From NCBI GenBank assembly GCA_022703505.1, contig JAKLDN010000008.1:158422-222421 (forward strand): a DNA stretch of 64,000 nt. Direction: 5' to 3'. The notes beneath the pieces were generated by a model. That model was not told the DNA's origin. It was given only the letters and a program-made list of their open reading frames with translations, and ran no database searches. The DNA is from Spirochaetota bacterium (GTDB lineage Bacteria; Spirochaetota; Spirochaetia; Treponematales; UBA12059). A program made the translations under genes and the position numbers. This document shows positions 3,650-54,158 of this stretch, piece after piece (within the stretch, counting starts at the first letter, position 1; the number at the start of each line of letters is the position of its first letter).

Positions 3650-3879
3650 TATTTCCCCGCGTTCTCCTTGGCTTCCTCTTCCTCCTCCTTCTTGGCCTCC
3701 ATCCGGTCCTTGATGTCGGCGATGCCGATGAAGACCGCGATCAGGCCGATGAGGACCGCGAGGACGGGGAGGGATCCCCGTAGGAATACGACGACGTCCT
3801 GCCACCAGGCAAGACCGAAGGGGACGCAGGCGACTACGGCCAGCAGGATCAGGACGATACCGACTATGAGAGCTACCAT
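3649..3879 (-). CDS. Small membrane protein with acidic C-terminal tail
   Basis: 76 aa with two predicted TM helices and an EEEEEAKENAGK tail. Flanked on both sides by the heptamer hairpins. Confidence 0.4.
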   Translation of the reverse strand: MVALIVGIVLILLAVVACVPFGLAWWQDVVVFLRGSLPVLAVLIGLIAVFIGIADIKDRMEAKKEEEEEAKENAGK

Positions 3880-3995
3880 GATCGAATGTTCCTCCTCATG
3901 TTCGTCCGGTCCGGCCGATGGGGCTGCGGCGGGGCCGGAAGGCGGTCCGCGCCGCCCACCTAAGCATACCCGAAAGAATCATTTCGTCAATACGG

Positions 3996-8611: not shown

Positions 8612-8685
8612 GACCCGGTAGCTCAGTTGGATAGAGCGAGCGCCTCCTAAGCGCTAGGTCGTGGGTTCGATTCCCGTCCGGGTCA
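8612..8685 (+). tRNA. tRNA-Arg (anticodon CCT)
   Basis: The cloverleaf folds by hand. Acceptor GACCCGG/CCGGGTC. D-arm GCTCAGTTGGATAGAGC. Anticodon stem AGCGC/GCGCT with loop CTCCTAA. T-loop TTCGATT. Confidence 0.8.
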
Positions 8686-22198: not shown

Positions 22199-22627
22199 TC
22201 AGTAAAGCAGTTCGACCCGGAGGCCCGGAAACCGTTGGAAATCCCGATCTCCCGTGACGATCACCGCGTCCTGTTCCAGACACAGGGCGGCCAGGTGGGC
22301 GTCCGTCGTGAGGTTGCCCCCCGTACCCGAGGCGAGCAGGAGGTGCCCCAGTATCCCGAGATGGGCCTTTCCGGGATCCAGGATACGGACCGACGGCCGG
22401 GCCGCCAGGTCCCGGATCCACTCCAGGGCCTGTTCAATGGATAAAGGCCGCGGGAAGACACGGCTCGAGGTCGTGAGCCGGAGGAACCCGAGGATCACGG
22501 CCCAGGGAAGTCCGATCTCCTCCGTTCCCCCGTTCACCTCCTCCTTCAGCCACGCCTCCGCCCGCTCGTGGCGGGCCGAGCCCGCGTCGACGGCGTACAG
22601 CAGGACGTTCAGGTCCGGGATGATCAC
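22199..22627 (-). CDS. vapC: PIN-domain toxin VapC
   Basis: MIIPDLNVLLYA...D..D acidic PIN residues. 4-nt overlap with the upstream antitoxin. Confidence 0.8.
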   Translation of the reverse strand: MIIPDLNVLLYAVDAGSARHERAEAWLKEEVNGGTEEIGLPWAVILGFLRLTTSSRVFPRPLSIEQALEWIRDLAARPSVRILDPGKAHLGILGHLLLASGTGGNLTTDAHLAALCLEQDAVIVTGDRDFQRFPGLRVELLY

Positions 22628-22881
22628 TTGCGCAGGTCCCGCTTGGCGATCGCGGCGTCGGCCTCCAGGCTATCCGCGACCTCCCAGGCCTTGTCGAGGT
22701 CCGCGGCGGGAGTCCCCATCCGGTAGGAAACGGGCTTCCACGGGGATCGGCCGACCGGGTCGCGCCCCAGGCCCTTTGCCAGGGTACGGTTCACCTCGTC
22801 CTTGAGGGTCGTCGAGTCCCGGGCCGCCCGGTCCTGTAGCTCGCGCATCAATATGTCCGAAATATCGATCGTAGTGCGCAT
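22624..22881 (-). CDS. vapB: VapB-type antitoxin
   Basis: 85-aa ORF overlapping the VapC start by ATGA. Typical type II TA layout. Confidence 0.6.
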   Translation of the reverse strand: MRTTIDISDILMRELQDRAARDSTTLKDEVNRTLAKGLGRDPVGRSPWKPVSYRMGTPAADLDKAWEVADSLEADAAIAKRDLRK

Positions 22882-22983
22882 ATGGACATCATACTGCTAT
22901 ATCCCGCCGGGGTCAATATTTCGGGTCCGAATCCGCCCACACGAGTCTTTAACCGGCCGCAAACGATTTTTCTGATTTTTCAT

Positions 22984-23017
22984 TGACGTCGCGTACATAG
23001 TGTAGTATATACACTAT
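22984..23017 (+). promoter_or_regulatory. Sigma-70-like promoter (TTGACG-16-TATATA) overlapping a 21-bp palindrome ATAGTGTA-GTATA-TACACTAT
   Basis: -35 at 22984-22989. Palindrome at 22997-23017 covers the -10. Lies 48 nt upstream of the sirtuin start. Confidence 0.55.
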
Positions 23018-23917: not shown

Positions 23918-25699
23918 ATGGAGAAAACGGACTTGAGTTTCATGTTCCTGAAAAAGGGCCTGGCCGCCGGCCGGGACCTGGATCTCGTGCTCCGGGTGGA
24001 GACCCCGGCCCGTACCTCCGAGGGCGCACGCAAGCCCGCGGACCTGGCCCTGGTCCTGGACCGCTCCGGATCCATGCAGGGCCGCAAGATCATCTACGCC
24101 CGGCAGGGGGCGGCCGCCGCCGTGGGCCTCCTGGGGCCGGAAGACCAGGCCAGCCTGGTGCAGTTCGACGACCGGGTGGACCTCCTCCAGCCCCTGACCC
24201 CGGCGGGCCGGGCCGGTGCCCTCCAGGCCGCCATCGCGGGCATCGAGCCCCGGGGCAACACCGATCTCCACGGGGGCTGGGCCGCGGGAGCGGACAGCCT
24301 GGGGGACGGAGAACCCGGACGCGGCGCCCGGCGGGTCGTCCTGTTGACCGACGGCCTGGCCAACCACGGGGTGACCGACCCCGGGACCATCGCCGCGAAG
24401 GTGGCCGAGGCGGCCCGCCGGGGCATCGCCACCAGCGCCCTGGGCATCGGGGAGGACTTCAACGAGGAACTCCTGGAGGCCGTGGCCCGGGCCGGGGACG
24501 GCTCCTACACCTTCGTGGAATCCCCGGACCAGCTGCCCGCCTTCTTCGAAGCCGAACTCGCGGGATTCGCGAACCTGGCGGGCCGGGAAGTCCGGCTCGG
24601 CCTGGCCCCGGGACCGGGGATCCAGATCGTCTCGGTCCTGAACGACCTTCCGTCCTCGAACACGGGTTCCCTGGTCCTGCCCAACCTGGTCGCAGGGGGC
24701 CGGCAGGAGATTGGGCTTACCGTGCGGGCCCTGCCGGGCCTGACCGCCCGGCCCGGGGAGGAGACGGAGCTCCTGGCGGTCCGGCTGGAATGGACCGATC
24801 CGGAGACCGGGGAGCGCCGGGAAATGCGGCAGGCCGCCCGCGTCCGGGCGGTCGAGGATCGGGATTTCGAGGCCCTGCCCGCGGATCCCGCCGCAGTGGA
24901 GACCCTGGCCCTGCTCCGGACGGCCCGGGCCAAGCGGGAGGCTCTGAACGCCGTGGACCGGGGGGACGAAGCGGGAATCGCCCTCGCGATGGACCATATC
25001 CGGGCCATCCTGGCGGGAACGCCTCCCACCGAACGGACGGAGCGGGAGAAGATCTCCCTGGCCTCCCTGGAGGAGGACTTCCGGCTCCGGAAAATGGGCA
25101 AGTTCCGCAAGAACGTGCACTACGAGTCCTACGCCCGGGGCCACGCCATGGACGAGGCCCGGCTCTTCGGACATTATTCCCGGAAGCTCCTGTTCCTGGT
25201 CCGGGACAGGCTGGACCTGCACATCGGCAGCCTGGCCGGCTTCCCCTGCGACGCGATCGTGAACTCCCGGTCCGACGAGCCCGCCTCGGGGCTGGACGAG
25301 GCTCTCCGGGCCGCGGGGGGCCCCGCCTTCCGGGCCGCCTGCGAGGCGATCGGCAGGCTGGGCGCAGGTGCCGCGGCCGTCACGGGCGGCGGAGACCTGC
25401 CCGTCAAGTCGGTCATCCACGTGCGGGTCCCGGACTGGCGGGGTGGGAATGCCTCCGAGTTCGGAGCTCTATCGGAGTGCTACGCGGCCTGCCTCCTCGT
25501 CGCGAAGGAGCGGGGCTTCGGCCACGTGGCCTTCCCGGTCCTGGGCGCGGGGGGCAGAGGATTCCCCGTAGATGCCGCAGTTTCCCTTGGGCTGAGTGCC
25601 GCGGCCCAGTTCCTGTTCTCGAACCCGGCGCCGCGGCGGGTGACCTTCGTCTGTCCGGACGGTCCGGCAGCCGAACTGATCTGGGGCCAGCTTCCCTGA
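23918..25699 (+). CDS. vWA (MIDAS) + Macro domain fusion protein
   Basis: N-terminal DLALVLDRSGSM MIDAS motif. C-terminal macro fold: DAIVNSRSD, GGP, VIHV, FPVLGAGGRGFPVD. Confidence 0.8.
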   Translation: MEKTDLSFMFLKKGLAAGRDLDLVLRVETPARTSEGARKPADLALVLDRSGSMQGRKIIYARQGAAAAVGLLGPEDQASLVQFDDRVDLLQPLTPAGRAGALQAAIAGIEPRGNTDLHGGWAAGADSLGDGEPGRGARRVVLLTDGLANHGVTDPGTIAAKVAEAARRGIATSALGIGEDFNEELLEAVARAGDGSYTFVESPDQLPAFFEAELAGFANLAGREVRLGLAPGPGIQIVSVLNDLPSSNTGSLVLPNLVAGGRQEIGLTVRALPGLTARPGEETELLAVRLEWTDPETGERREMRQAARVRAVEDRDFEALPADPAAVETLALLRTARAKREALNAVDRGDEAGIALAMDHIRAILAGTPPTERTEREKISLASLEEDFRLRKMGKFRKNVHYESYARGHAMDEARLFGHYSRKLLFLVRDRLDLHIGSLAGFPCDAIVNSRSDEPASGLDEALRAAGGPAFRAACEAIGRLGAGAAAVTGGGDLPVKSVIHVRVPDWRGGNASEFGALSECYAACLLVAKERGFGHVAFPVLGAGGRGFPVDAAVSLGLSAAAQFLFSNPAPRRVTFVCPDGPAAELIWGQLP

Positions 25700-25744: not shown

Positions 25745-26431
25745 ATGTACACTTACCCGTACCCCCACCCCGCGGTCACCGTGGACTGCGTCGTCTTCGG
25801 CCTGGACGAGGGGGAACTCAAGGTCCTCCTTATCCAGCGGGACCTGGACCCCTTCGCCGGAAAATGGGCCTTGCCCGGGGGCTTCATCCGCATGGACGAG
25901 GACCTGGAGGCTGCCGCCCGGCGGGAACTGGAGGAGGAGACGGGGGTCAAGAAGCTGTACATCGAGCAGCTCGGGGCCTTCGGGACCCCCGGCCGGGATC
26001 CCCGGGAGCGGGTGGTCACCGTGGCCTGGTGGGCGGTGGTCAACCTCTACGAGCACGAGGTGAAGGCCTCCACGGACGCCCGGAACGCCGCCTGGTTCCC
26101 CGTGGAGGAGCTTCCCGCCCTGGCCTTCGACCATCCGGTCATCCTGGACGCGGCGCTGGCCCGCGTGCGGGAAACCCTGCGCCGGGAACCCCTGGCCTTC
26201 GAGTTCCTGCCCCGGAAGTTCACCCTGACCCAGCTCCAGCGCTTCTACGAGACCGTCCTGGGCCGGCCGTTGGACAAGCGCAACTTCCGAAAGAAGGTCC
26301 TTTCCTACGGCCTGCTTGAGGAGCTCGAGGAGTACGAGGTGGACGTGGCCCACCGGGCCGCACAGCTCTATACCTTCCGCCGGGACCGCTACGAAACGTT
26401 CCGGGAGGAAGGCAGCCGGTTCCTGGTATAA
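25745..26431 (+). CDS. NrtR-like Nudix hydrolase-domain transcriptional regulator (Nudix + C-terminal winged helix)
   Basis: Nudix box GKWALPGGFIRMDEDLEAAARRELEEETG. C-terminal 90 aa is helix-rich and basic (KRNFRKKVLSYGLLEE). GAAGGAGG RBS. Confidence 0.7.
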   Translation: MYTYPYPHPAVTVDCVVFGLDEGELKVLLIQRDLDPFAGKWALPGGFIRMDEDLEAAARRELEEETGVKKLYIEQLGAFGTPGRDPRERVVTVAWWAVVNLYEHEVKASTDARNAAWFPVEELPALAFDHPVILDAALARVRETLRREPLAFEFLPRKFTLTQLQRFYETVLGRPLDKRNFRKKVLSYGLLEELEEYEVDVAHRAAQLYTFRRDRYETFREEGSRFLV

Positions 26432-26440
26432 GGAGGCCTC

Positions 26441-28504
26441 ATGCTGGGCGCGATTTCAGGGGACGTCCTGGGCTCGTTGTACGAGGCCTGGTCGATCAAG
26501 GACAAGAACTTCCGGCTCTTCCACGAGCTGGACCGGCCCACCGACGACTCCGTCCTCTCCCTGGCGGTGGCCAAGGCGATCCTGGACGCCGACGCCGAGG
26601 GCCGGTTGCCGGAAGCCGGGGACTACGAGCGGGAACTCCGGGCCTTCGGCCGCCGCTACCCCGACGCGGGCTACGGGGGCTCCTTCCGGGCCTGGGTGAA
26701 CGATCCCGTAGGCAAGCCCTACGAAAGCTTCGGGAACGGCTCGGCCATGCGGGCCTCCGCCGTGGGCTGGGCCTTCGGGGACGCGGAAACCGTCCTGACC
26801 CAGGCGGAACTCTCGGCCGCCCCGACCCACGGCCACCCGGAGGGCATCAAAGGAGCCCAGGCCGTCGCCCTGGCGGTCCTCCGGGCCCGGACGGGATCCT
26901 CGAAGGAGGAAATCCGCTCGGAGCTCTCCCGCCGCTTCGGCTACGACCTGGGCCGGACCGTGGACTCGATCCGGCCGGGCTACCCCTTCGAGGTCAGCTG
27001 CCAGGCCTCGGTCCCGGAGGCGATCGTCGCCTTCCTGGATTCCCGGGATTGGGAGGACGCGGTGCGGAACGCCGTCTCCCTGGGGGGCGACGCGGACACC
27101 CAGGCCTGCATCGCCGGGGCGATCGCCGAGGCCTTCTACGGCGGGGTTCCGCCCCGGGTCCTGGCCTGGGTCCTGCCCCGGCTGGAGGCCGGCCTCCTTT
27201 CGACCCTCTCGGACTTCGCGCGCCGCTTCCTGCCCGCCGACCGGGCCGCGGCCGTGGCCGCCGAGACCGCGGCCCGCGGTCTGCCCCGGGGAGTACCGGG
27301 GGCGGGCGGGAACCGGAAGGCCGGCGGAGCCGGCCCCGCCCCGGGCGACCGGAAGCGCCGCGGAGCGGCGCATGCCGGAGACCCGGGCAGGGACCCCGAC
27401 ACCCGGCACCCCCTGGCCCCCGCCCCGGGCTACCGGGTGGTCCTGGCCGGCTCGACCCGGGCCCGGATCGCCGACTACGCACGGCGCCTTTCCGCGGACC
27501 CAGGTCTCGCGGGGGCGCGGCTCCAGGCGGCCCTGGCGGACCTGGCTGTCCCCAGGTTTGACGCGGCCTGGCTCCTCGTCTCCCTCCTGGCCACCAAGAA
27601 GCCCCGGATCTTCGCGGAGAGCGAGGTGGCCGGGGACGGCTCGGACTGGACCCGGGAGGAGCTCGGGCTTTTGGGGGACATCGGCTTCGCGGTGCCCGTC
27701 ACGGTCTTCGACGACGGCCGCCACTCCGCCCCCCGGGTACACTCGACGCCCTTCGGGGCCACCCTGCTCTTCGCCCCCGGGGCCCTGTTGGCAGGGAGGC
27801 GGGGATCCCCCGCGGACGGGCACGTAGCCCCCGGCGGCCACATCGACCCGGTCCGGTACGGGGCCCTCTACGAGGGGCGGCTCCTCCCCCTCCTCCAGTA
27901 CGCGAGCGCCGTCTCCTCGGCGGCGGGCCGGAAGGCCCTGGTCACCGTGCCGGGCCTGGGCTGCGGCCAGTTCGCCGGACCTTTCCGGGGCCGCCTGGGA
28001 CCGTACCTGAGGGACGCCCTGGCGGGGATCCTGAAACGGAACGCGAAGATCCTGCCGGGCATCCGGGCCGTCCGCCTCGATCCCTACGACGAATGCGGGA
28101 ACGAGGACCGGCGCATCGGACGGATCGCCTTCCGGGTCCGCCCCCTGGCGGTGAACGAACGGAAGGGCACGGGGCTCGGCCTGCCCCAGCTCCGCCCGCC
28201 CCGGGACTACCAGGAGCCCGGGGACGACTTCTCGGACTGCGACCTCTTCAGCGTCGTCGCCTGGGACCCCGTCTCCTGGCCCGGGAACGACTACTGGGCC
28301 GGGGCCCGGGCCACCGACGACGGGGTCAAGGCCGCGGCCACGGACGCGATGTTCGCCCTTTCGGGCTTCCGGGGCCGCTACGACCCGGAGACCTGCGGAT
28401 ATCTGCCGCCCCCGGGGGTCCGCGCCTGGGAGGACCTGGTCCTGGAGCAGCGCCTGGTCCTGCGGGCCGTGGACAACGTGACGGTCGTCGGATCTCCGGG
28501 ATGA
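26441..28504 (+). CDS. ADP-ribosylglycohydrolase (DraG/ARH family) fused to a 400-aa uncharacterized C-terminal domain
   Basis: N-terminal ARH motifs (DDSVLSLA, GNGSAMRASAVGW, GGDADTQACIAGAIAEAFYG). The C-terminal half has a TVPGLGCGQFAG glycine-rich loop and no family I can name. AAGGAGG RBS. Confidence 0.75.
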   Translation: MLGAISGDVLGSLYEAWSIKDKNFRLFHELDRPTDDSVLSLAVAKAILDADAEGRLPEAGDYERELRAFGRRYPDAGYGGSFRAWVNDPVGKPYESFGNGSAMRASAVGWAFGDAETVLTQAELSAAPTHGHPEGIKGAQAVALAVLRARTGSSKEEIRSELSRRFGYDLGRTVDSIRPGYPFEVSCQASVPEAIVAFLDSRDWEDAVRNAVSLGGDADTQACIAGAIAEAFYGGVPPRVLAWVLPRLEAGLLSTLSDFARRFLPADRAAAVAAETAARGLPRGVPGAGGNRKAGGAGPAPGDRKRRGAAHAGDPGRDPDTRHPLAPAPGYRVVLAGSTRARIADYARRLSADPGLAGARLQAALADLAVPRFDAAWLLVSLLATKKPRIFAESEVAGDGSDWTREELGLLGDIGFAVPVTVFDDGRHSAPRVHSTPFGATLLFAPGALLAGRRGSPADGHVAPGGHIDPVRYGALYEGRLLPLLQYASAVSSAAGRKALVTVPGLGCGQFAGPFRGRLGPYLRDALAGILKRNAKILPGIRAVRLDPYDECGNEDRRIGRIAFRVRPLAVNERKGTGLGLPQLRPPRDYQEPGDDFSDCDLFSVVAWDPVSWPGNDYWAGARATDDGVKAAATDAMFALSGFRGRYDPETCGYLPPPGVRAWEDLVLEQRLVLRAVDNVTVVGSPG

Positions 28505-28655: not shown

Positions 28656-28813
28656 AAGTTTGCGCGCGCGTCGGGAGGACGAAGCCGACCGCCTCATGCT
28701 TCGTGAGCCCGCACCCTCCCTCTGGCGCCCGGCCCGGCCATGCCCGATACTTGAACCGAGGCGGCCGCCGCCCGGACACTCGCTCCCTTCGGCGCGGCCG
28801 GACTGGAGGTTCC

Positions 28814-30112
28814 ATGGATCCCCTGGCGATATCCCAGGCCCTCTCGGCCCTGGTCTTCGGGGCCCTGTCCGCGGGGAGTCTCCTCCTGGGCGCCTGGACC
28901 GGAATATTCCTGAAGCCGCCGCCCCGGGTCTCCGCCGCGGTCATGGCCTTCGGCGCGGGGGCCCTCTTCGCGGCCCTGTCCCTGGAACTGATCGGCGAGG
29001 CGGTGGAGCGCCTCCACGGGAACTTCTGGCCCATCGGACTGGGCTGCGTGGCCGGGGGCCTGCTCTTCGTCACCCTGGACCACCTGGTGAACGGCGCGGG
29101 AGGCTTCCTCCGCAAGCGCTCCACCCTGTCCCGGCGCCTCCGAGCGGACCGGAGGAAGGACGTCCGGCTCCTCCTGGAGAGTCTGGCCAAGGTCCCCCTC
29201 TTCGCCAGCCTGCCCCCCGAGGAGGTCCGCAGCCTGGCGGACCAGGTGACCCGGGTGCGCTGCGACGCCGGCACCCCGGTCATCCGCACCGGGGAGCCCG
29301 GGGCCGAGCTCTACCTGGTCGAGTCCGGCCGCCTGGAGGTATCCCGGGGGGGCGCAAGCCTGGCGGTCCTCGGGCCCGGGGACATGGTCGGGGAGATGGC
29401 CCTGCTCACCGGGGAGACCCGCACCGCGGACGTGACGACCCTGGAAGCGGCGGTCCTGCTCACCCTGCGCAAGGAAGCCTTCGACCGACTCCTGGCCGCG
29501 AACCCCCGGCTCCGGGAGGCGGTGGAGAGACTGTCCGGCCAGCGGCGGGAGGCCCTGGAGAAGGCGGCCGCCACGGTGGACCCTGCGGCCTGGGCCCGGA
29601 AGGCCGGGACCGGGGACTGGAAGCCCAGCTCCCTGGAGCTGGACGAGGCCTTCGCCCAGGCTGGGGGAAAGAAGAAGGGCGGGGCCCCCATGGGTATCTG
29701 GCTGGGCATCCTCCTGGACGGCGTCCCCGAGTCCGCGGTCATCGGTGCCAGCATGATCGGGGCCGAGAAGGCCAGCCTGGCCCTGATCCTGGGACTCTTC
29801 ATCGCCAACTACCCCGAGGCCCTGTCCAGCGCCGTGGGGATGCGGAAGATGGGCATGTCGGTGTGGAAGATCACCGCCCTCTGGGGCTCCATCGTGGCCC
29901 TGACCGCGGTGGGCGCGGGGATCGGCAACCTGGCCTTCCGCTCGGCCCCCGGGGAGCTGGTGGCCCTCTTCGAGAGCCTGGCCGCGGGCTCCATGCTGGC
30001 CATGCTGGCGGAGACCATGATGCCCGAGGCCTACGAGCACGGCGGTTCCGTCACCGGTATGGCCACCATCCTGGGCTTCGTGTCCGCGGTCTTCCTGCGG
30101 GTGGCGGGGTGA
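28814..30112 (+). CDS. ZIP-family metal transporter with an inserted cyclic-nucleotide-binding (CAP_ED) domain
   Basis: TM helices and GIxLHxxxEG-like ZIP blocks at both ends. Central cNMP fold (FASLPPEEV...GEPGAELYLVESG...GEMALL..RTA). GGAGG RBS. Confidence 0.75.
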   Translation: MDPLAISQALSALVFGALSAGSLLLGAWTGIFLKPPPRVSAAVMAFGAGALFAALSLELIGEAVERLHGNFWPIGLGCVAGGLLFVTLDHLVNGAGGFLRKRSTLSRRLRADRRKDVRLLLESLAKVPLFASLPPEEVRSLADQVTRVRCDAGTPVIRTGEPGAELYLVESGRLEVSRGGASLAVLGPGDMVGEMALLTGETRTADVTTLEAAVLLTLRKEAFDRLLAANPRLREAVERLSGQRREALEKAAATVDPAAWARKAGTGDWKPSSLELDEAFAQAGGKKKGGAPMGIWLGILLDGVPESAVIGASMIGAEKASLALILGLFIANYPEALSSAVGMRKMGMSVWKITALWGSIVALTAVGAGIGNLAFRSAPGELVALFESLAAGSMLAMLAETMMPEAYEHGGSVTGMATILGFVSAVFLRVAG

Positions 30113-30205
30113 TTCGGAATTCCGAGCCCCCTCGATAATCAGGATGGATTCCCGGAACCGTGATAGACTGAAGGATAGAGAATCATTACAAAGGAGCGTC
30201 CCTTC

Positions 30206-31186
30206 ATGAAGATCCACGTCATCGGCTGCGGCAACGCCTTTTCCAGCGAGTCCTTCAACCAGTCCTTCGTGATCGAGGAAGCCGGGCGGCGCATGCTCAT
30301 CGACTGCGGCATGCAGACCCCCCAGGCCCTGGTCACGGCCCGGTACAAGCCCCAGGACATCCACGACATCTACGTGAGCCACCTCCACGCGGACCACGTC
30401 GGGGGCCTGGAGTACTTCGCTTTCGCCCGGTACGACTGGGCCAAGCATCCCCGGTCCTGGTCGGAGGGGACCTACGCCCCCCGGCTGATCGGCAACGTCC
30501 AGCTCCTCCGGGACCTCTGGGACAAGACCCTCCGGGGCGGCCTGGAATCCATGGAGGGTTTCGTCTCGAACCTGGAGACCTTCTTCGAGCCGGTCCCCGT
30601 CGAGCCGAACAAGCGCTTCGAGTGGCAGGGCTGGACCGTGGACCTGATCCAGCAGATCCACATCATGTCGGGCTCGGTGATCATGCCCTCCTTCGGCATC
30701 CTCTTCAGCAGGACGGGCCGCAAGTCCGTGTACTTCGTGACGGACAGCCAGCACTGCTCGCCCCGGCAGATCGAGGAGTACTACAAGCGCGCGGACCTGA
30801 TCTTCCAGGACTGCGAGTGCACGGGCATGGACCTTCGCTTCCCCGAGGGCGCCAAGACCTACGTCCAGGACGGGGTCCCGAAGGCCTGGCCCGAGGACGA
30901 GATGGAGGCCCTGGACCTCCTGGCCCGGGGGATCGAGCCCGTGAAATGGTCCCGGTACAAGTTCTCCTCGGGGGTCCACGCCAACTACGCCCAGCTGGCG
31001 GGCTACGAGAGCGCCAACTCCATCAAGCTGGATCCCCAGGTCAAGGCCAAGATGTGGCTCTCCCACTACCAGGACTACGTCCTCATCGGCAAGGACCACT
31101 TCGGCAACGAGGTCGACTGGGCCGCGGAGGCGAAGAGAGACGGGTTCGCGGGCTTCGTCAAGCTGGGCCAGCGATTCGAGGTCTGA
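30206..31186 (+). CDS. MBL-fold metallo-hydrolase
   Basis: HLHADHVGG (HxHxDH) motif. AAGGAG RBS. Confidence 0.75.
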   Translation: MKIHVIGCGNAFSSESFNQSFVIEEAGRRMLIDCGMQTPQALVTARYKPQDIHDIYVSHLHADHVGGLEYFAFARYDWAKHPRSWSEGTYAPRLIGNVQLLRDLWDKTLRGGLESMEGFVSNLETFFEPVPVEPNKRFEWQGWTVDLIQQIHIMSGSVIMPSFGILFSRTGRKSVYFVTDSQHCSPRQIEEYYKRADLIFQDCECTGMDLRFPEGAKTYVQDGVPKAWPEDEMEALDLLARGIEPVKWSRYKFSSGVHANYAQLAGYESANSIKLDPQVKAKMWLSHYQDYVLIGKDHFGNEVDWAAEAKRDGFAGFVKLGQRFEV

Positions 31187-32839: not shown

Positions 32840-33286
32840 TCAAAGGGCGAGTTCGAAGACCTCCTCCCCGTCGTCCAGGATACCCGTGTCCCGGAAGCCC
32901 GCCTTGAGGTAGACCTTGATGGCGTGGGCGTTCTCCGGGTGGGTGGACAGCCGCACGCGGGCGGCCGCGGGGTAGTCCCGGCGGATCTCCGCCACCAGGA
33001 GCCGGACCGCGGCGCTCCCGATCCCCCGGCCGTGCAGGTCCGGCAGGACGTACATCCGAACGATCCAGGGGATGCCCCGGTCCGCCGGATCGTCCGCGTC
33101 GTCGTCGACGCCGCTCATGCAGAATCCCGCGAGCTTGCCGTCCGCGTAGATCGCCCGGGGCCGAAGGGACGGGTAGAGCCAGGCCTGAGCCAAGCTCCGG
33201 ATATTCGCGGCCACGTGGTCCTGCTTGGGCATGGCCACGATCTCCTCGAAATTGTCCTTGTCCACGGGGCGCAGTTCCACGTTCAT
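32840..33286 (-). CDS. GNAT-family N-acetyltransferase
   Basis: LHGRGIGSA acetyl-CoA-binding motif. Last gene of the overlapping six-gene operon. Confidence 0.8.
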   Translation of the reverse strand: MNVELRPVDKDNFEEIVAMPKQDHVAANIRSLAQAWLYPSLRPRAIYADGKLAGFCMSGVDDDADDPADRGIPWIVRMYVLPDLHGRGIGSAAVRLLVAEIRRDYPAAARVRLSTHPENAHAIKVYLKAGFRDTGILDDGEEVFELAL

Positions 33287-34194
33287 GGTGCCTCCTTGTT
33301 CGATTCCGGCAACGGCTCCGCAGCCCGGGCCCAGGCCGCGGGCACGCCGCCGGGGGCCGAGAGGGCCACGATGCCCCCGACGATGGCGCAGGTGGTGTCC
33401 CGGTCGATGCCGCAGGCGGCGTCCCGGAGGGCCGCGGCGTAGTCGGAGGGCCGACGGGCGGCGACCCAGAGGCAGAAGGGGACGGTGTCGAAGGCCGCCA
33501 CGGCCATGCCGGAGCCGAGGCTCCAGGCGGCCCTCTCGGCCGGCACGTCCCCCAGGACCCGGGCCTTCCCGATCCCCTCCCGCACCCGGCCGGACCCGAG
33601 CACGTCGAGCACGGCGGTAAAGAATGCGTCCCGGTCGAAGGACCCCGTCCCCTCCCGGCCGGACGCGGCCGCTAAGGCGGCGGCCGCGGCTACGGCGGCC
33701 GCCCCGTCGATGCCTTCGGGATGGGCATGGGTAGGCTCCGCGCTTGTCGCGCCCTCCGAGGCGGCCCGGGCGGGGTCCCCCGCGTACCAGGCCCCGATCG
33801 GCGCGGCCCGCATGGCTCCCCCGTTGCCCCAGGAACCGGTTCCCCCGAAGGCCGCCCGGGAAACCGCGCGCCAGTCCTTTCCCCGGGCTATCTCGGACAG
33901 GATCGCGTGGGCCCCTCCCCAGTAGCCCCGGGCGGGGTCCTCGGCGTAGCGGAGGGCGAAACGCCGGGCCAGGTCGTCCGGGTCGATCCGTCCCCGGGCC
34001 TCCAGGGTCTCCACGACGGAGACCGCCATGGCCGTGTCGTCGGTCCAGCGCAGGGACCCCGGCGGAACCTGTCCGGCCTCGATCCGGGCCGCGACCTCCA
34101 CGGGGTCCCGGGAGAAACAGGCTTCCCCGTACGCATCCCCCGCGGAGAGCCCCAGCAGGGACAGGCGGGCGAGGATTCGGCGGCCGTCGTTCAC
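33283..34194 (-). CDS. ADP-ribosylglycohydrolase-family protein (second copy in window)
   Basis: DDTAMAVSV, GNGGAMRAAPIG, GIDRDTTCAIVGGIVA ARH-family blocks. Confidence 0.8.
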   Translation of the reverse strand: MNDGRRILARLSLLGLSAGDAYGEACFSRDPVEVAARIEAGQVPPGSLRWTDDTAMAVSVVETLEARGRIDPDDLARRFALRYAEDPARGYWGGAHAILSEIARGKDWRAVSRAAFGGTGSWGNGGAMRAAPIGAWYAGDPARAASEGATSAEPTHAHPEGIDGAAAVAAAAALAAASGREGTGSFDRDAFFTAVLDVLGSGRVREGIGKARVLGDVPAERAAWSLGSGMAVAAFDTVPFCLWVAARRPSDYAAALRDAACGIDRDTTCAIVGGIVALSAPGGVPAAWARAAEPLPESNKEAP

Positions 34195-34790
34195 GATTCC
34201 TCCTCCACGGGCTCCGCGTCCTGGACCACCGGCAGTTCCTCCATCAGGGACGCCAGCTCCCGGGCGAAGTCCGCGATCCTCGAGTCCTGCATCACTTTGG
34301 CCTCGGCCTCCAGGCGGGAGCCCAGGATCCGGTCGAAGCAGCGCACGAAGCGGAGGTTGGGCAGGGCCTGGGGCCGGACCTCCCGAAGCCTCCGGACCGC
34401 CTCGGCCTCGCTGCCGGTCTCCAGGTAGAGGAGCGCCAGGGCCGCCGCGGTGGACCGGGACACCCCCGCCCAGCAGTGCACCACGTAGCCGGACGCCTCC
34501 CGGCGGGTGCGGCGCCAGAAGGCCACGACCCTGCGGGCGTCCCGGACCTCGGGGATCCGGGCCAGGAAGGGATGCCGGAGATGGGACCGCTCGGTGGCGT
34601 CCTGGAAGGACAGGCGCAGGATGCTGCGGAAGCGCGGTCGGAACTCGGGGCGCACCCGGGTGCCCGGCTCCCGCTCCGCCCAGGGGACGCGGGGATTCCC
34701 GATGGACACCAGGTGGTCCGGCAGGGGGACGCCGACCCTCACCAGGTCCGCCAGCTCCTCCTCCCCGAAGACGAGAATCGGCAAGGTCAT
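34191..34790 (-). CDS. Dual-specificity (Cys-based) protein phosphatase
   Basis: VVHCWAGVSRST CX5R P-loop. Internal Met start with a 4-nt overlap to the upstream gene. The longer ORF prefix is Pro/Gly junk. Confidence 0.7.
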   Translation of the reverse strand: MTLPILVFGEEELADLVRVGVPLPDHLVSIGNPRVPWAEREPGTRVRPEFRPRFRSILRLSFQDATERSHLRHPFLARIPEVRDARRVVAFWRRTRREASGYVVHCWAGVSRSTAAALALLYLETGSEAEAVRRLREVRPQALPNLRFVRCFDRILGSRLEAEAKVMQDSRIADFARELASLMEELPVVQDAEPVEEES

Positions 34791-35556
34791 GCCCACCTCG
34801 GGTTCGGAACCGGGACGGCTGCGGGGATCCGCCGGACCTTTCGGGTTTCGACCTCGATGTCCCAGAAGACCCGGGCGTGGGGATACGCCCCGTTCACGAA
34901 GCGCCCCCGCCGGCCGGGCCGGTTGTGGATGTGGCCGAAGAGATGTAGCCGGGGCTCCCGGTCCCGGACCAGGTCCCGGAGGGCGGGGATGCCGTGGATC
35001 AGCTCCGCCCGGCCGTCCAGGATCCCCGCGGGCGGGGAATGGGTGACCAGGATCGATTTCCGGTCCACCCGGGGCGCCAGGGCCCGGACCTCCCGGTCCA
35101 GGTCCGCCTCGCTCCGGTGGTCGACGGTCCACCGGTACCCGACGAAGTTCCAGGTCCCGAACTCGATCCTCCGTCCGTGCAGGTTCACGATCCCTCCTCC
35201 ATCCGCCCAGGGGGTGTCGTCGTGGTTCCCGGGCACCAGGAAGACGGGCTTTCCGGCCCCGCCCAGGACCTCCCGGAACCGGCCTTCCAGGATGGACAGC
35301 CCCCTCAGGTTAATCTCGTTGAAGCGCCGGCCTACGGTTTGCCAGGGCGACGGGTCCTCGGGATCCGCCAGGTCCTCCAGAAGGTCGTCCGGGTCCGCCC
35401 CCAGTTCCCGGACCAGGAACTCGTCGGGCAGGCGGATGTCGTCCAGGAGGTCCCCCGCCAGGACCCCCGCGTCCCAGGGACCCTCCGCCAATGTCCGGGC
35501 GAAGAGACGGTACGCCGGCATGAGGGCGTGGAGATCCGAGGAGAAGAGGAGCCTCA
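34787..35556 (-). CDS. Calcineurin-like metallophosphoesterase
   Basis: SDLH, GDLLD, GNHD, HSPP, GHIH metallophosphoesterase motifs. GGAGGGGG RBS. Confidence 0.75.
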
Positions 35557-36723
35557 TTCCGCCCCCTCCAGTTCCTCGAGGCCCTCGTCCAGGACCGCGC
35601 GGAAATGGGCGGCCAGGGCGGCCTTCCGGCGCTCCAGGAGTTCCTCGTCCGAGGCCGAGGGGAGGAAGGGCGCGGGCGCCCCGGACCGGGGCGGGGCGAG
35701 CATGAGGTCCTCGACCAGCCGGGAGAGGTCCGCGGGGTCGAACCGGGCCTCCAGGTACCGGTGGTTTCCGGAGGGATCCGCCGTCCAGCGCCCGGAGCCT
35801 TCCCTGTCCACCTCGAGCCGGCCCGGCGCGGAGAGCCGGAAATACCGGGTCCCCGTCACGGCGGCCAGGACAGCGGCCTGGTCGTAGCAGGCCCAGTCCA
35901 GGCCCACCGTGTGGAGGCGGTAGGCGGTGCGCACGGGGTTCCCCCGGGGCGCCTCGCGGCAGAACCGGGCGCCCGCCTGGAGGGAGCCCCCGAGTTCGCC
36001 GTCGCAGATCACGACGGGGGTCGGCCATCCGGCTAGGACGCGCCGGGCGGCCCCGGGATCCTGCCGGAGATTGTACTCGATCCCCTCGGGGATCCGGCCG
36101 CACATGAGGACGAGCTTCCGCACCGAACGGCGGACCAGGTCCGGCCCGGACAGGGGGCTGGTTCCGTCGGGGCCCGAGTCGAGGAGGGCCGCCAGGTTGA
36201 GCATCGGGCCGATGCCCACGAGTACCGCGTCCGCCCGATCGCGGCCCGCCAGGAGCCGCCGGATAAGGCCGACCGCCTCCGGGTCCGCTTCGTGCGCTGT
36301 TCCGGCCTGCGCGGGCGCGGCGGCCGCCTCAGGATTGTTACCGGGCACGGCTTCAGCCTGCGCGGACACGGCGGCCGGTTCCGGACCGCCCGGGGCCGCG
36401 ACGCCCTCCCCGGGTCCGTAGGCCTCCGCCAGGAAGCGGATGTACGAGAGGTCCGCGTGCTCGTCCAGGAAGCCCGGCCGGCCGAAGGCGCCGACGGGTA
36501 TGTCCGGTCGGCCGTACCAGCGGTTGACCGCCCGGATTGCGGGGACGCCCCAGCGTGCGGAGGTGCAGTAGGTCATCCCAAGGATCTCCGCCAGGCCTCG
36601 ATCCGCAAGGGCGTGGAGCACCGCCAGGGCCCCCGCGTCGTCCACGTCCTCGTTCAAGTCCGTGTCCAGGATCAGGGGTAGCGGCCGTCGCCGTCTTCGC
36701 GGGAGGGGAGGAAGCTCAGCCAA
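35554..36723 (-). CDS. Inosine-uridine-preferring nucleoside hydrolase-family protein
   Basis: LILDTDLNEDVDDAGAL (DxDxxxDD) N-terminal motif. Confidence 0.8.
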   Translation of the reverse strand: MAELPPLPRRRRRPLPLILDTDLNEDVDDAGALAVLHALADRGLAEILGMTYCTSARWGVPAIRAVNRWYGRPDIPVGAFGRPGFLDEHADLSYIRFLAEAYGPGEGVAAPGGPEPAAVSAQAEAVPGNNPEAAAAPAQAGTAHEADPEAVGLIRRLLAGRDRADAVLVGIGPMLNLAALLDSGPDGTSPLSGPDLVRRSVRKLVLMCGRIPEGIEYNLRQDPGAARRVLAGWPTPVVICDGELGGSLQAGARFCREAPRGNPVRTAYRLHTVGLDWACYDQAAVLAAVTGTRYFRLSAPGRLEVDREGSGRWTADPSGNHRYLEARFDPADLSRLVEDLMLAPPRSGAPAPFLPSASDEELLERRKAALAAHFRAVLDEGLEELEGAE

Positions 36724-45340: not shown

Positions 45341-45566
45341 GAACTTTCTATTACTTTGGATTATCACCGCCTGTCACTATTTATAATTATAGCAAGTATT
45401 TGCTTAGTTTTCAATAGTATGCGTTAGCAAGCGTTTTTATGGTTTTTTTAGATTTTTGCGCCCAATTTGCGCCCAGTTATTTATTGCTAACTATGCAATA
45501 GAAGAGGAAGCTCACCAAGCATTTTTATAGCCTTCGTCCTCAGTATGTACATGCTTCACCTCCTTA

Positions 45567-46823
45567 TCAAGCTCTTTTAAAAGCTCCCTGCATCCGCTCA
45601 ATTTCAGGCCTACGGATGCCCAGAGCCTTCGCCCGCACCTGCCACCTCGAGACCACCCCGCGTATCGCCTCCATGATCGAGAGTGCCTCGGGCTTTGAGA
45701 GCCTGAAGTACTGCGCGACCGATAGGGCCAAGTCGAAATCCAACGAATTGTCATGCTCGTCGATGGCGAGGGAGAGGCCCGCCGAATCAGGCGAGGGATT
45801 GATGTCGTAGGCGGGAGAAAGCCACCAGCCCTTCGCATCGAGGAGGAAGCCATGATTCCGAAGATGGTCGTCGGTGTTGGAAACGGCGATGGAAAACACG
45901 ATGCGTTTCCAGAGCTCCCGCAGATCGGCGTCGGGCCGGGATCCGGAGCGCATGATGAACTCCGCGAGCTCGAGGTAGCTTGCGCCGGCCTCGGCGTCAT
46001 CGCCGTCCTTGCGGCCGAGCAAGGTCATGGCGGAGGCGAAATGGATACGTCCCTCTCCTTGGCGATCGAAGCGCTTCGTCATGAAGGTGGAGCCTCGCTT
46101 CGAGAAGGAGTCTAGCCTGCATTCGCTCATCTCGATGCCAGCTGCGCAGGCGAGGTCGGCGACGAGCATCTCCCAAGCGCCTGAGTCGCGTTCATCATCC
46201 TTGCCCGGGAACTTGGCTATCCAGAGTTCGCCCTTCTCGTCCACTACGCTAGCCTTGGGCCTAGCGCCTCCGAGCGAGGAGCCGGGCGCAATCAACATGG
46301 CGAGCCAGGGGTCGAGCTTGTCGTCATCCTCTTCATGTTCCGCGAGGAAACTCGCATACTCGAGATCGCGTAGCGTTGACCACGGCGGGGCTGCCATAGC
46401 CGTATCCAAGCTCTGATAGGCTTCGTTGCCTGGTATCTTAAACCGCAAGGCGCCCAAACGATTCTTATCATGAACGCCGAGGAGGTACTCCGCTTCTCCG
46501 AGCCTTCGCGGCGTCCGCCCTTCCTTCCTTGCCAAGATGGCCTCGCGCCGCCTCATGAGGACGCGGCCCCAACGATCGGGAGAGGAATCCAGGAACAGGC
46601 CGAAATTTGGCTTACCCACCCCGGCATACTGGGGTCCCTTATAGAATCGCAGATCAGGGTCGAGCGTTCGGTTGTCGTCGCGGCGAAGCCATGCCGCGTC
46701 GTACTCGAAGGAGAAGACTTCCTTGCCGCGCGGCGCTTGGACGGACAACGTGCCGAGATGGGCAACGGATCCAAGGCCGAGCCAATCGGCATACACTTCG
46801 ATAGTGCGCCCGGCGTCGCTCAT
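45567..46823 (-). CDS. hipA: HipA-family Ser/Thr kinase toxin
   Basis: 418 aa. SNTDDHLRNHGF catalytic loop. Confidence 0.85.
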   Translation of the reverse strand: MSDAGRTIEVYADWLGLGSVAHLGTLSVQAPRGKEVFSFEYDAAWLRRDDNRTLDPDLRFYKGPQYAGVGKPNFGLFLDSSPDRWGRVLMRRREAILARKEGRTPRRLGEAEYLLGVHDKNRLGALRFKIPGNEAYQSLDTAMAAPPWSTLRDLEYASFLAEHEEDDDKLDPWLAMLIAPGSSLGGARPKASVVDEKGELWIAKFPGKDDERDSGAWEMLVADLACAAGIEMSECRLDSFSKRGSTFMTKRFDRQGEGRIHFASAMTLLGRKDGDDAEAGASYLELAEFIMRSGSRPDADLRELWKRIVFSIAVSNTDDHLRNHGFLLDAKGWWLSPAYDINPSPDSAGLSLAIDEHDNSLDFDLALSVAQYFRLSKPEALSIMEAIRGVVSRWQVRAKALGIRRPEIERMQGAFKRA

Positions 46824-47149
46824 GATTCATCCTTCTTCGGCGACTTTCGGGCACGCCGTCGGCTAGGAAGCTTGGCGTCCTGGAGAGCGCGTCCGAGCTC
46901 GTCATCGAGCGCGACAGCCTCGAGGTCCTTCTCGAGTCCCAGCACGAACAAGACCTGTATCCAAGTAGCCATCGATACCGAGCCGGAGCCATTCTCGAGG
47001 GCGCTCAGGGTCTGTCGGCTGATGCCCGCCCGTTCGGCAACCATCTCGGCGCTGAGATCGCGTCGGAGCCGCGCCAGTCGGATATTCTCGCCGAGCGTTT
47101 CGAGGCTACGTTGGACACTGGGCAATAGGACCGGGAGTTTCTTAGGCAT
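46820..47149 (-). CDS. hipB: HipB-like XRE-family HTH antitoxin
   Basis: LSAEMVAERAGISRQTLSALENG HTH. 4-nt overlap with hipA. Confidence 0.75.
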   Translation of the reverse strand: MPKKLPVLLPSVQRSLETLGENIRLARLRRDLSAEMVAERAGISRQTLSALENGSGSVSMATWIQVLFVLGLEKDLEAVALDDELGRALQDAKLPSRRRARKSPKKDES

Positions 47150-47353
47150 AACGTATAATATAATAGGCATAAAAGGTATATCTGTCAAATTATTACGACG
47201 TAAAACTGAATAACACAACTCACATGCAAAGGTGGTTCTTACAAAATGTCGAGAATCGGACTACTTTGATGTTCCTGACACGGCCACTTCATTGACCATA
47301 CCCTAGAAGGTATCTCCATGGTTTATACCTTGATGGGTAAATGGTAAGAAAGG

Positions 47354-47779
47354 CTATTGAACGATAGGCGTCTTCCCGTCCTTAACCTTGCTAGTCGTCT
47401 TAGCTGCAATCCGCGAGGCGGAGCCCCGGGACTTAGAAACTCCACGAGCACTGGAGGGTTGAGTAGCATAGGTCATAATCCGTTCACGCTGAATGAAGCC
47501 ATGGTCCTTCCGGAGGACTTCCAGAAAACGGCAAGCAGCGCCATTCGGGACGTTCCGACCAGCTTCCCAGGCCTCAACGGTCTTCTTAGCGACTCCAAGA
47601 ACTTGGGCGAAAACAGTCTGGGAAAGCCCAAGAGCGAGCCGGAGTGCCTTAACCGCATGGGCATCATAGGTGGGAAGCGGTGCTATCTTGATCGCTGTAG
47701 TCTTGAGCTTAAGCTTGCCCTCTTGATGAGCCTTGACCTCAGAGAGGCCACGCATGATGCTCTCGAACGCTTCGCCCAT
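47354..47779 (-). CDS. HigA-like HTH antitoxin
   Basis: LRLALGLSQTVFAQVLGVAKKTVEAWEAG HTH. Sits immediately downstream of the toxin. Confidence 0.7.
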   Translation of the reverse strand: MGEAFESIMRGLSEVKAHQEGKLKLKTTAIKIAPLPTYDAHAVKALRLALGLSQTVFAQVLGVAKKTVEAWEAGRNVPNGAACRFLEVLRKDHGFIQRERIMTYATQPSSARGVSKSRGSASRIAAKTTSKVKDGKTPIVQ

Positions 47780-47780
47780 A

Positions 47781-48109
47781 TCAGTCTCCTAACAGTCCCT
47801 TTACGTACGTCTTGATCGCCTGCTTCTCTTCGGAGCTCAGGTTGTCCTTCTCATCCTTACCGAAAACAGTGATGAGATAGATCAGGCCGGACGCCCGCAT
47901 ATCGAGATAGATCGTCCGCAGGCTCCCGGATTCCCCCTACCTTCGCGCGCCCAGCGCAGCTTACGCACACCACCTGTTCCCTGGATGACCGGAGCGATCT
48001 CCGGATGCTCGAGGAGGTAGTTCTGGAGCTCGCGGAGGTCATCCTCCGTCATCCCGAGGGCCTTCCATCGGGATTGGAACTCCTTGGTCTCTACAAAGGT
48101 TCTCGTCAT
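47781..48109 (-). pseudogene. RelE/HigB-family toxin disrupted by a -1 frameshift in a G5 homopolymer
   Basis: N-terminal MTRTFVETKEFQSRWKAL...GVRKLRWAREGRG in one frame. C-terminal ESGSLRTIYLDMRASGLIYLITVFGKDEKDNLS in another. Adding one G at about 47935 restores a 108-aa toxin. Confidence 0.7.
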
Positions 48110-48302
48110 CCAGTATACCAGACCACCCTATCTAATAGGGTACTTAGAATGAATATAGCTCTGTGAGAGACTCTCGTCTAGAAGAGGGAAGGATATGAAA
48201 GAGGAAACTCGATAAAGCGGTTTGACGCGCTCGAGCGAGTACTAGCAGGTACAGAATGTCTCTCCCCCATATCGCGTTGCCCTGAAACAGCCTGTGGGTT
48301 AA

Positions 48303-48338
48303 GACTAAAAAGCCCGCCCCATAAGGGAGCGGGCCAAG
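48303..48338 (-). terminator. Intrinsic terminator after the 327-aa gene
   Basis: Minus strand GGCCCGCTCCC-ttat-GGGGCGGGC followed by TTTTTAG. Confidence 0.55.
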
Positions 48339-48340
48339 GG

Positions 48341-49324: not shown

Positions 49325-49338
49325 GATAAAGTCCTCCC

Positions 49339-50253: not shown

Positions 50254-50410
50254 GGGAGACCTCCTAGGGGATGGATCTCCAATATCAGTAGTATCGCCAT
50301 ATACGACCAGGAAGTAGAAATGTCCCAACCGAAGCCCAAGCTGGATGTTCATTGACAGCACAATTGGCGCGGTGTACTGTCCATAAGATACTTAACTGGA
50401 GGTAAAAACG

Positions 50411-50611
50411 ATGGCAGATGTATCTACGTCAGGATTCAATGGAACGACAGACATCCCAACGCAAGTCTTCGAAAGCTTCCTTTCGGAGCTGAAGAGCACC
50501 GGAGCATCGAGCGAGATGATCGAAAGACTTCGCAAGACGTTGCTCGAGGATCACATCTTCACAGAAGGCGCTCTAAAGACCGCCGTTCTAGGTGAGGAGA
50601 CGTCGCTATGA
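50411..50611 (+). CDS. Small 66-aa protein translationally coupled to the ATPase
   Basis: GGAGGT RBS. Stop overlaps the ATPase start (ATGA). Confidence 0.5.
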   Translation: MADVSTSGFNGTTDIPTQVFESFLSELKSTGASSEMIERLRKTLLEDHIFTEGALKTAVLGEETSL

Positions 50612-54146: not shown

Positions 54147-54158
54147 TATCTTAAGCGC

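Follow-up and report, generated by a model that had tools for sequence, protein, structure and literature searches.

A 64,000-nucleotide stretch of contig JAKLDN010000008.1 (the window, below), from a Spirochaetota metagenome-assembled genome (MAG), carries in a single open reading frame (ORF) a fusion of an ADP-ribosylglycohydrolase (ARH) to a macrodomain of the type known from the Legionella pneumophila effector MavL. The fusion gene lies in a cluster with genes for a sirtuin and an NrtR-family regulator. We propose that its product is a two-headed ADP-ribosyl hydrolase, encoded in an NrtR operon induced by ADP-ribose, and that its C-terminal region is a catalytically competent MavL-type macrodomain; judging from sequence comparisons and a structure model, we give this explanation as a whole a probability of roughly 0.7. 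An earlier note on this DNA had described the part beyond the ARH fold as an uncharacterized domain of about 400 residues that matched nothing nameable. The fusion gene and its parts are as follows.

26441..28504, + strand: ARH-MavL fusion gene, a single ORF of 687 codons encoding 687 amino acids
26441..27277, + strand: ARH domain, ARH3-like, residues 1-279 (Pfam PF03747, AlphaFold model, and conservation)
27302..27418, + strand: Gly/Pro/Arg-rich, disordered interdomain linker, residues 288-326 (predicted local distance difference test score [pLDDT] of <50)
27431..28411, + strand: MavL-type (PF24754) macrodomain, residues 331-657 (Pfam, PDB sequence match, and Foldseek)
27947..27973, + strand: diphosphate-binding loop VPGLGCGQF, residues 503-511 (matches the published motif)
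28262..28297, + strand: catalytic loop WDPVSWPGNDYW, residues 608-619 (matches the published motif)
28313..28321, + strand: T625-D626-D627 triad, 3' of the catalytic loop (MavL alignment)

The claim that the C-terminal region is unnameable fails, because this region is a clear member of a structurally and biochemically characterized family (PMC10951314). Residues 331-657 match Pfam PF24754 ("Macrodomain effector MavL") along nearly the whole profile (positions 1-322 of 325; E 5.6e-105), with a score of 351 bits against a curated cutoff of 27. Six distinct PDB sequences of L. pneumophila MavL match at E ~1e-63, and identity to MavL is 39% over 320 aligned positions. A Foldseek search of the fusion-protein model against the PDB, a check that the earlier note had suggested, returned MavL, an ADP-ribose-related domain, at ranks 1 to 16 (E ~1e-25, target template-modeling score 0.85-0.89, root-mean-square deviation 2.3-2.9 Å), followed by ARH3 structures, which match the N-terminal domain (E 6e-10). 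NCBIfam gave no match on the C-terminal part, and so NCBI naming models would leave the fusion as "ADP-ribosylglycohydrolase family protein"; the source names bear this out.

The model itself, made with AlphaFold2 on an alignment of 39 homologues, has a mean pLDDT of 87.5 and a predicted template-modeling score (pTM) of 0.87. The helical ARH fold reaches approximately residue 279, beyond the Pfam match to residues 1-234, in agreement with the earlier statement that the N-terminal part holds a complete ARH fold. A second, well-folded alpha/beta domain extends from residue 331 to approximately 683; the pTM hints that there may be a defined interface between the two heads. Thus, the second folded domain inferred earlier is real and spans residues 331-657, but the figure of 400 residues included the disordered linker of ~40 residues: the interval then given, 27250..28504 (residues 270-687), takes in the ARH end, the linker, and the second domain.

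Zhang et al. (2024) defined this macrodomain class by two motifs, a diphosphate-binding loop, [V/I/L]xGxGxGx[F/W/Y], and a catalytic loop, WDxx[S/A]xPGN[D/E][F/Y][F/W/Y] (PMC10951314). Both are present, as VPGLGCGQF (from residue 503) and WDPVSWPGNDYW (from residue 608). The glycine-rich loop TVPGLGCGQFAG that had been singled out from the letters alone (residues 502-513, 27944..27979) is the diphosphate-binding loop, and the conserved Asp/Glu patches are the catalytic loop together with the TDD triad. The earlier guess, that a further catalytic or nucleotide-binding module might act on NAD or ADP-ribose, was thus well aimed: the region belongs to an ADP-ribose-binding macrodomain hydrolase family and is not a common domain unrelated to nucleotide metabolism.

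Residue roles in MavL come from mutagenesis and structure (PMC10951314), and the fusion protein has the identical amino acid at each position where mutation impairs MavL. MavL F227, D315, D323, and D333 correspond to F511, D609, D617, and D627; F105 and E107, in the arginine-contacting insertion, to F391 and E393; the adenine-stacking pair H142/Y265 to H428/Y549; and N322, T331, and D332 to N616, T625, and D626. MavL, Larg1, and two Drosophila homologues were tested on defined peptides mono-ADP-ribosylated at Arg, Ser, Thr, Cys, or a His mimic and on single-stranded DNA ADP-ribosylated at thymine (O-acetyl-ADP-ribose was not included), and all four hydrolyzed the arginine linkage alone (PMC10951314).

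For the N-terminal head, Pfam ADP_ribosyl_GH (PF03747) matches residues 1-234 (E 1.4e-33). The closest solved structures are the Thermus thermophilus ARH 2CWC (E 9e-13) and human ARH3 (E 3e-12), with ARH1 (E 1e-5) and DraG (E 5e-5) farther away. Head 1 shares the ARH fold with ARH3 (ADPRHL2/ADPRS), 2CWC, and DraG, and the binuclear-metal ligands are present as T34-D35-D36 and D217-x-D219-T220 (the TDD and DxDT motifs). One ARH3 alignment covers residues 3-157. The GS-YE motif, here GSLYE with an invariant E15, may correspond to the region of the catalytic Glu41 of ARH3, which it resembles. The fold of head 1 is shorter (~280 versus ~350 residues). It belongs to a very conserved clade, whose members are 50 to 60% identical across many phyla and occur fused to ARPP-1, SseB, DUF6508, DUF1810, DUF3293, OGFr_N, vWA, and methyltransferase modules; its closest nonfusion relatives are 54 to 58% identical.

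One could suppose that a frameshift, from sequencing or assembly, has merged two adjacent genes at the linker, which is of low complexity, very GC rich, and predicted to be disordered. We consider the probability of this negligible. The identical 687-residue protein was called on at least 8 independent metagenome contigs from different samples, and 39 full-length homologues from independent assemblies, 48 to 91% identical to the window protein, align with it end to end, all in one continuous frame; their linkers vary in length (824 alignment columns for proteins of 632-739 residues). Because the same protein recurs on these contigs and has numerous full-length homologues, the fusion is real, neither a chance ORF nor an assembly artifact. 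It is also conserved: approximately 45 clusters at 90% identity carry both PF03747 and PF24754, and all named sources are Spirochaetota. Likewise, the eight GTDB species-representative loci with the fusion or a close orthologue (L001-L008) are all Spirochaetota (Spirochaetes, Treponema, Treponematales, or Spirochaetales MAGs; 5 of the 8 are contig fragments with one part of the gene), the closest being 91% identical. Clustering at 50% leaves a single representative of the fusion, P0013.

The 39 homologues do not vary at the ARH metal ligands, E15, or H130; T129, which forms a "TH motif" with H130, is conserved in ≥90%. In the MavL head, G505, G507, C508, G509, W608, D609, N616, D617, T625, and D626 are invariant, and F391, E393, H428, F511, P548, Y549, and D627 are ≥90% conserved. 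Both heads are thus under selection. The MavL-type domain might still be a noncatalytic "reader" of ADP-ribose that directs the ARH head to modified substrates, since many macrodomains are binding modules and three positions that contact ADP-ribose in MavL differ here (T224 is C508, C226 is Q510, and K236 is G520; the C226 contact is listed among backbone contacts [PMC10951314]). These replacements count against our explanation as well. However, the equivalents of MavL F227, D315, D323, D333, F105, and E107 are all present and either invariant or ≥90% conserved in the 39 homologues, and this conservation argues against a degenerate domain; we regard a pure reader as very unlikely.

The fusion gene is the last of four genes, all on the + strand, in the order SIR2, vWA-Macro, NrtR, and ARH-MavL, with gaps of 34, 45, and 9 bp. 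The features upstream of it are as follows.

22997..23017, no strand assigned: 21-bp perfect palindrome ATAGTGTAGTATATACACTAT, candidate NrtR operator, 24 bp upstream of the SIR2 start codon
23041..23883, + strand: class III (CobB/Sirt5-like) sirtuin, first gene of the cluster (Pfam SIR2)
23918..25699, + strand: vWA fused to a MacroD-like macrodomain, 593 amino acids (Pfam VWA and Macro)
25745..26431, + strand: NrtR-family regulator, Nudix plus winged helix (Pfam NUDIX and NrtR_WHD)

The regulator matches Pfam NUDIX (E 1e-23) and NrtR_WHD (E 2e-26), its Nudix box GFIRMDEDLEAAARRELEEETGV is intact, and its NCBIfam match is "ADPR responsive transcriptional repressor" (174.9 bits, under the 400-bit cutoff). 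An nrtR gene lies directly upstream of the fusion or is co-operonic with it in the window and in nine further loci (L001, L002, L004, L006, L007, L008, L083, L087, and L088), and SIR2 belongs to the cluster, on the same strand, in the window, L006, L088, and L081. The gene orders at the related loci are as follows.

L006 (Treponematales): SIR2, vWA-Macro, NrtR, and the ARH head to the contig end, with the MavL part on L005
L088: NrtR, SIR2, fusion, GGDEF
L081: SIR2, fusion, GGDEF, without NrtR
L087, L001, L002, L004, L007, and L008: NrtR, fusion
L083: GGDEF, NrtR, ARH, NadR-like, PnuC, fusion (NadR-like and PnuC are NAD salvage genes)
L089: frameshifted nrtR directly upstream of the fusion
L084: neither NrtR nor SIR2 nearby

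At L089 (7267..7982), nrtR is spread over several frames: tblastn found five fragments of 50 to 79% identity, gene calling found none, and an operator-like site is kept at 7250. If real and not an assembly error, this locus would be a natural regulator knockout.

According to Rodionov et al. (2008; PMC2330246), an NrtR operator is a 21-bp palindrome whose core is GT-N7-AC, a form that ATAGTGTAGTATATACACTAT satisfies. With up to 2 mismatches allowed, the core AGTGTA-N5-TACACT occurs once in the 64-kb window, against 0.19 matches expected. It stands directly upstream of the first cluster gene at L002, L006, L007, L008, L083 (two copies), L087, L088, and L089; at L084, two copies stand directly upstream of the fusion gene, though nrtR is not nearby. 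Fusion loci hold 14 matches in 218 kb, nearly all promoter proximal, versus 12 in 964 kb of other loci. Half of those 12 are paired sites in three Pseudanabaena loci: the NrtR-like palindromes AGTGTAAAAATAACACT and TGTGTAGTTTATACACT, 26 bp apart (L061 at 4603/4629, L068 at 7078/7104, and L071 at 6900/6926), lie ~1 kb upstream of homologues of head 1 that have the ARH alone. This suggests that the ARH clade may be NrtR linked in cyanobacteria too.

By eye, the center of the window palindrome overlaps a −10-like hexamer (TTGACG-17-TATATA), and the same pattern recurs in L087 (TTGACG-17-TATAAA) and L088 (TTGACT-17-TATATA). A terminator scan found none after the fusion gene. Between the palindrome and the nrtR start at L087, whose fusion protein is 88% identical, there are approximately five tandem copies of a 14-bp unit, CTCCAAGGGACCGG (3790..3890); the window has a single related copy.

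The sirtuin keeps the GAGIS and QNID motifs, the catalytic His of its HG motif, and four Zn-binding Cys residues. Its best NCBIfam match is the NAD-dependent protein deacylase NF001753 (217.6 bits, under the 243-bit cutoff), and its closest solved structures are Sirt5, CobB, and Sir2Af2 (E 4e-42). Because it is Sirt5/CobB-like and has the catalytic His, it should yield O-acyl-ADP-ribose. ARH3 and MacroD enzymes hydrolyze O-acetyl-ADP-ribose. Iyer et al. (2022) likewise give O-acyl-ADP-ribose as a known ARH3/MacroD substrate (PMC9503650). A SirTM-type ADP-ribosylating sirtuin was also considered as a writer and rejected on similarity, since the closest structures are Sirt5 and CobB and no SirTM is among the 60 solved-structure matches listed; a class III sirtuin may nevertheless have weak ADP-ribosyltransferase (ART) activity.

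In the vWA-Macro protein, Pfam finds VWA (residues 42-211, E 2e-15) followed by Macro (residues 456-556, E 1e-22); the best NCBIfam match is O-acetyl-ADP-ribose deacetylase, far under the cutoff. The MacroD motifs of its macrodomain (25280..25699) are divergent by eye (N-x7-SGLD versus Nx6GG[VLI] and GAGGRGF versus G[VIA][YF]G), so this domain may bind rather than hydrolyze, or may have another specificity.

We envisage the proposed two-headed hydrolase working as follows. Reactions that consume NAD (sirtuin deacylation and protein ADP-ribosylation by an ART not found at the locus) would leave ADP-ribose on proteins or as O-acyl-ADP-ribose. Head 1 (residues 1-279) would be a metal-dependent, ARH3-like ADP-ribosylglycohydrolase. 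Head 2 (residues 331-657), joined to it by the flexible linker of ~40 residues, would be a metal-independent macrodomain whose VPGLGCGQF loop binds the ADP-ribose diphosphate and whose D609, N616, D617, and D627 hold the distal ribose; it would free ADP-ribose from mono-ADP-ribosylated arginine through substrate-assisted attack by a phosphate-bound water, as proposed for MavL. With the neighboring MacroD-like domain, the two heads would set ADP-ribose free from linkages that differ in chemistry, head 2 acting on N-linked arginine and head 1 on O-linked forms, for example, O-acetyl-ADP-ribose or serine-ADP-ribose. Free ADP-ribose would then release NrtR from its operator, and cluster expression would rise, making this a product-induced loop; ADP-ribose-induced derepression is what Iyer et al. 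propose for ARG-centric systems (PMC9503650).

Besides the three replaced MavL contacts, several points weigh against this explanation. Arginine specificity was shown for four members only, and the authors note that it may not hold class-wide (PMC10951314). The relationship of the ARH head to ARH3 is distant (E ~1e-12, ~26% identity), and the linkage preference of this head can therefore only be guessed at. At L081, SIR2 and the fusion occur with neither nrtR nor a palindrome, L084 and L089 are without SIR2, and no ART gene was found near any locus. The promoter scanner called no + strand promoter at the palindrome; it passed over TTGACG-17-TATATA because the last base of the −10 hexamer is not T. 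Finally, the three standalone MavL homologues examined outside the fusion lineage are without a consistent NrtR or SIR2 context.

As for the physiological role, we tentatively favor housekeeping NAD turnover, at a little under even odds. Because L081 and L088 share a syntenic housekeeping neighborhood of flanking shikimate-pathway and GGDEF genes, and because the L083 operon includes PnuC and NadR-like genes, the cluster has the look of core NAD metabolism. It could instead be an ARG-centric conflict system (Iyer et al. 2022), induced to strip the ADP-ribose that an ART toxin of a phage or competitor sets on host proteins, in which case the MavL head would widen the range of reversible linkages. 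The parts fit those listed for such systems in PMC9503650 (an ARG core, an ADP-ribose-sensing Nudix-helix-turn-helix [HTH] repressor, a vWA "chaperone," and an accessory Macro); the ARH relatives of 54 to 58% identity carry the hallmark partners ARPP-1, SseB, vWA, and DUF6508; the cluster has no ART gene coupled to it and stands between PIN/antitoxin pairs; and 5 kb downstream there is another ARG, accompanied by DSPc and calcineurin-like phosphatases. However, the defining screen, as described there, required that no sirtuin or ART be coupled, and a sirtuin is in the operon at four loci; the housekeeping synteny of L081 and L088 and the L083 operon are unlike a mobile defense island; and PADLOC models match neither the sirtuin, the vWA-Macro protein, the fusion, nor the second ARH. 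In the neighborhood, PADLOC gave only a weak Nudix match (NrtR) and cyclic-nucleotide-binding-domain matches (the downstream membrane protein). A conflict role is therefore possible though somewhat unlikely.

A role mainly on small molecules, in which the protein clears 2''/3''-O-acyl-ADP-ribose and soluble ADP-ribose derivatives for NAD salvage and demodifies no protein, would accord with the co-operonic deacylase-type sirtuin, the adjoining MacroD-like domain with its O-acetyl-ADP-ribose deacetylase match, the PnuC and NadR-like genes at L083, and the known activity of ARH3 and MacroD on O-acetyl-ADP-ribose. We hold it to be unlikely: the four characterized MavL-class enzymes act on arginine-linked ADP-ribose and on no other linkage tested (O-acetyl-ADP-ribose was not tested), the conserved arginine-contacting F391 and E393 would be needless for a small-molecule substrate, and the vWA partner suggests protein binding. 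We are just as doubtful that the protein is a dual-chemistry eraser (N-linked Arg plus O-linked Ser or O-acyl), product induced with the sirtuin and NrtR, that serves an endogenous Arg-ADP-ribosylation cycle.

How the proposed hydrolase and its operon compare with known systems depends on the part considered. Head 2 shares with the MavL/DUF4804 class (Lpg2526; PF24754 and PF16062; PDB 6OMI, 8DMP-8DMS, 8IPJ, 8IPW, and 8XEP [PMC10951314, PMC8699189]) the fold, both motifs, all catalytic residues defined by mutation, the F/E insertion for which an arginine-holding role has been proposed, and the His and Tyr that sandwich adenine. It is only 39% identical to Legionella MavL, versus 50 to 55% to standalone homologues of free-living bacteria, and it lacks the C-terminal extension of MavL. 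Unlike MavL, it is fused to an ARH, stands under NrtR-type control, and has C, Q, and G in place of MavL T224, C226, and K236. MavL is an effector of an intracellular pathogen, whereas the fusion is not a secreted effector and its host is a free-living spirochete; there is no reason to suppose that it targets ubiquitin. An orthologue of the ubiquitin-ADPR-specific Dot/Icm metaeffector of Legionella was considered and rejected, given the 39% identity, the spirochete MAG, and the absence of SidE-like or ART genes from the window neighborhood.

The ARG-centric systems (Iyer, Burroughs, Anand, de Souza, and Aravind 2022; PMC9503650), as set out in section 3.8 of that paper, share with the fusion cluster the same ARG clade, the adjacent Nudix-HTH repressor, the vWA partner, the accessory Macro, and the proposed ADP-ribose derepression. 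The repressor is here NrtR, 9 bp upstream in the window and adjacent or co-operonic in 10 further loci (the L089 copy being degraded). The clusters differ in that SIR2 is coupled in the window, L006, L088, and L081 and in that the MavL-type Macro partner lies within the same polypeptide; Spirochaetota are not among the lineages named in that section. According to the same section, approximately 55% of such systems have a coupled phosphatase (rhodanese-phosphatase, calcineurin-like, HD, or HAD); none is in the fusion operon, and the DSPc and Metallophos genes 5 kb away lie on the other strand and accompany another ARH paralogue.

With NrtR regulons (PMC2330246), the cluster shares a Nudix plus winged-helix regulator and a 21-bp GT-N7-AC palindrome upstream of the operon; in Streptomyces, nrtR adjoins a draG-like ARH gene. 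The targets here are mostly enzymes predicted to release ADP-ribose, plus a sirtuin, and not NAD biosynthesis genes, and only L083 adds PnuC and NadR-like genes. A word search of PMC2330246 found no mention of spirochetes. A sirtuin and a macrodomain hydrolase are likewise coencoded in the SirTM/Zn-macrodomain writer-eraser operons (Rack et al. 2015; PMC4518038), but here the sirtuin is class III, there are no GcvH-L or LplA2 genes, and the macrodomain belongs to another class.

Elsewhere in the window, a second ADP-ribose-related cluster (32840..36657, −) encodes a GNAT acetyltransferase, a 303-residue ARH, a DSPc-type phosphatase, a calcineurin-like metallophosphatase, an inosine/uridine nucleoside hydrolase, and then a STAS protein. 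Its ARH is only 32% identical over 123 residues to the fusion's ARH head. The ARG, rhodanese-phosphatase, and calcineurin-like core of this cluster fits the ARG-centric systems of PMC9503650 better than the fusion cluster does. Directly 3' of the fusion (28703..31186, +) is a gene for a membrane protein with a cyclic-nucleotide-binding domain, which resembles those of Pycsar effectors in PADLOC (E 7e-15), and ZIP-transporter-like segments; an Apyc1-like metallo-beta-lactamase-fold protein comes next (Pfam Anti-Pycsar_Apyc1, E 1e-20). The two could be a cyclic-nucleotide-gated effector or transporter with a cyclic-nucleotide phosphodiesterase.

On the other side, divergent from the SIR2 cluster, a PIN-domain toxin and a small upstream partner (22199..22881, −) are likely a toxin-antitoxin pair; the only sigma-70-like promoter called in the region, TTGACC-17-TATGAT (22888..22916, −), serves this pair. 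At ~45500..59600, G+C is 0.49-0.57, versus ~0.65-0.73 before; with a HipA-like kinase, REase-ARP and RecT, an SMC/AAA_23 ATPase, a DUF6791-ThiF (E1-like) protein, and a ResIII helicase, this segment looks like a mobile or defense island. The sole RNA gene detected in the window (Rfam and ARAGORN) is tRNA-Arg(CCT) at 8612..8685 (+).

MavL-class macrodomains have been characterized only as Legionella effectors and two Drosophila proteins, with an occurrence described as "spotted." We found at least 1270 clusters with the MavL domain at 90% identity, mostly standalone proteins of ~355 residues; homologues of this kind that are 50 to 55% identical to head 2 come from Verrucomicrobiota, Gammaproteobacteria, and others. 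At 50% identity there are 524 representatives (199 with E ≤1e-30), many of them large multidomain proteins. A Pfam scan of ten such large proteins found no fused writer (ART) domain and, besides MavL or MavL-like (PF16062), only ankyrin repeats or lpg1496_N; these ten look effector-like. No recurrent partner was found around three standalone homologues (Verrucomicrobiota, Gammaproteobacteria, and one further contig). At L091 (3564..7077), a standalone homologue (52% identical) directly follows vWA (YfbK-like) and rhomboid genes and adjoins two TIR-domain proteins; this vWA-MavL co-occurrence might not be coincidence.

In the literature searched, we found no description of the ARH-MavL fusion, its restriction to Spirochaetota, or its coupling to a sirtuin; the protein fits within described NrtR/ARG neighborhoods. 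The MavL class is widespread in free-living bacteria, and the ARH fusion with its NrtR-type operator, often with a sirtuin, offers a first contextual clue to what MavL enzymes that are not effectors may do. Through it, the predicted ARG-centric systems induced by ADP-ribose also come to include Spirochaetota and versions coupled to a sirtuin, and it provides a natural system in which the substrate ranges of two unrelated ADP-ribosylhydrolase folds could be compared side by side. If the dual-chemistry eraser should prove right, there would be a regulated arginine-ADP-ribosylation cycle in free-living spirochetes, with the sirtuin itself or another enzyme as the writer, and this would be the first physiological, noneffector role for the MavL macrodomain class in bacteria.

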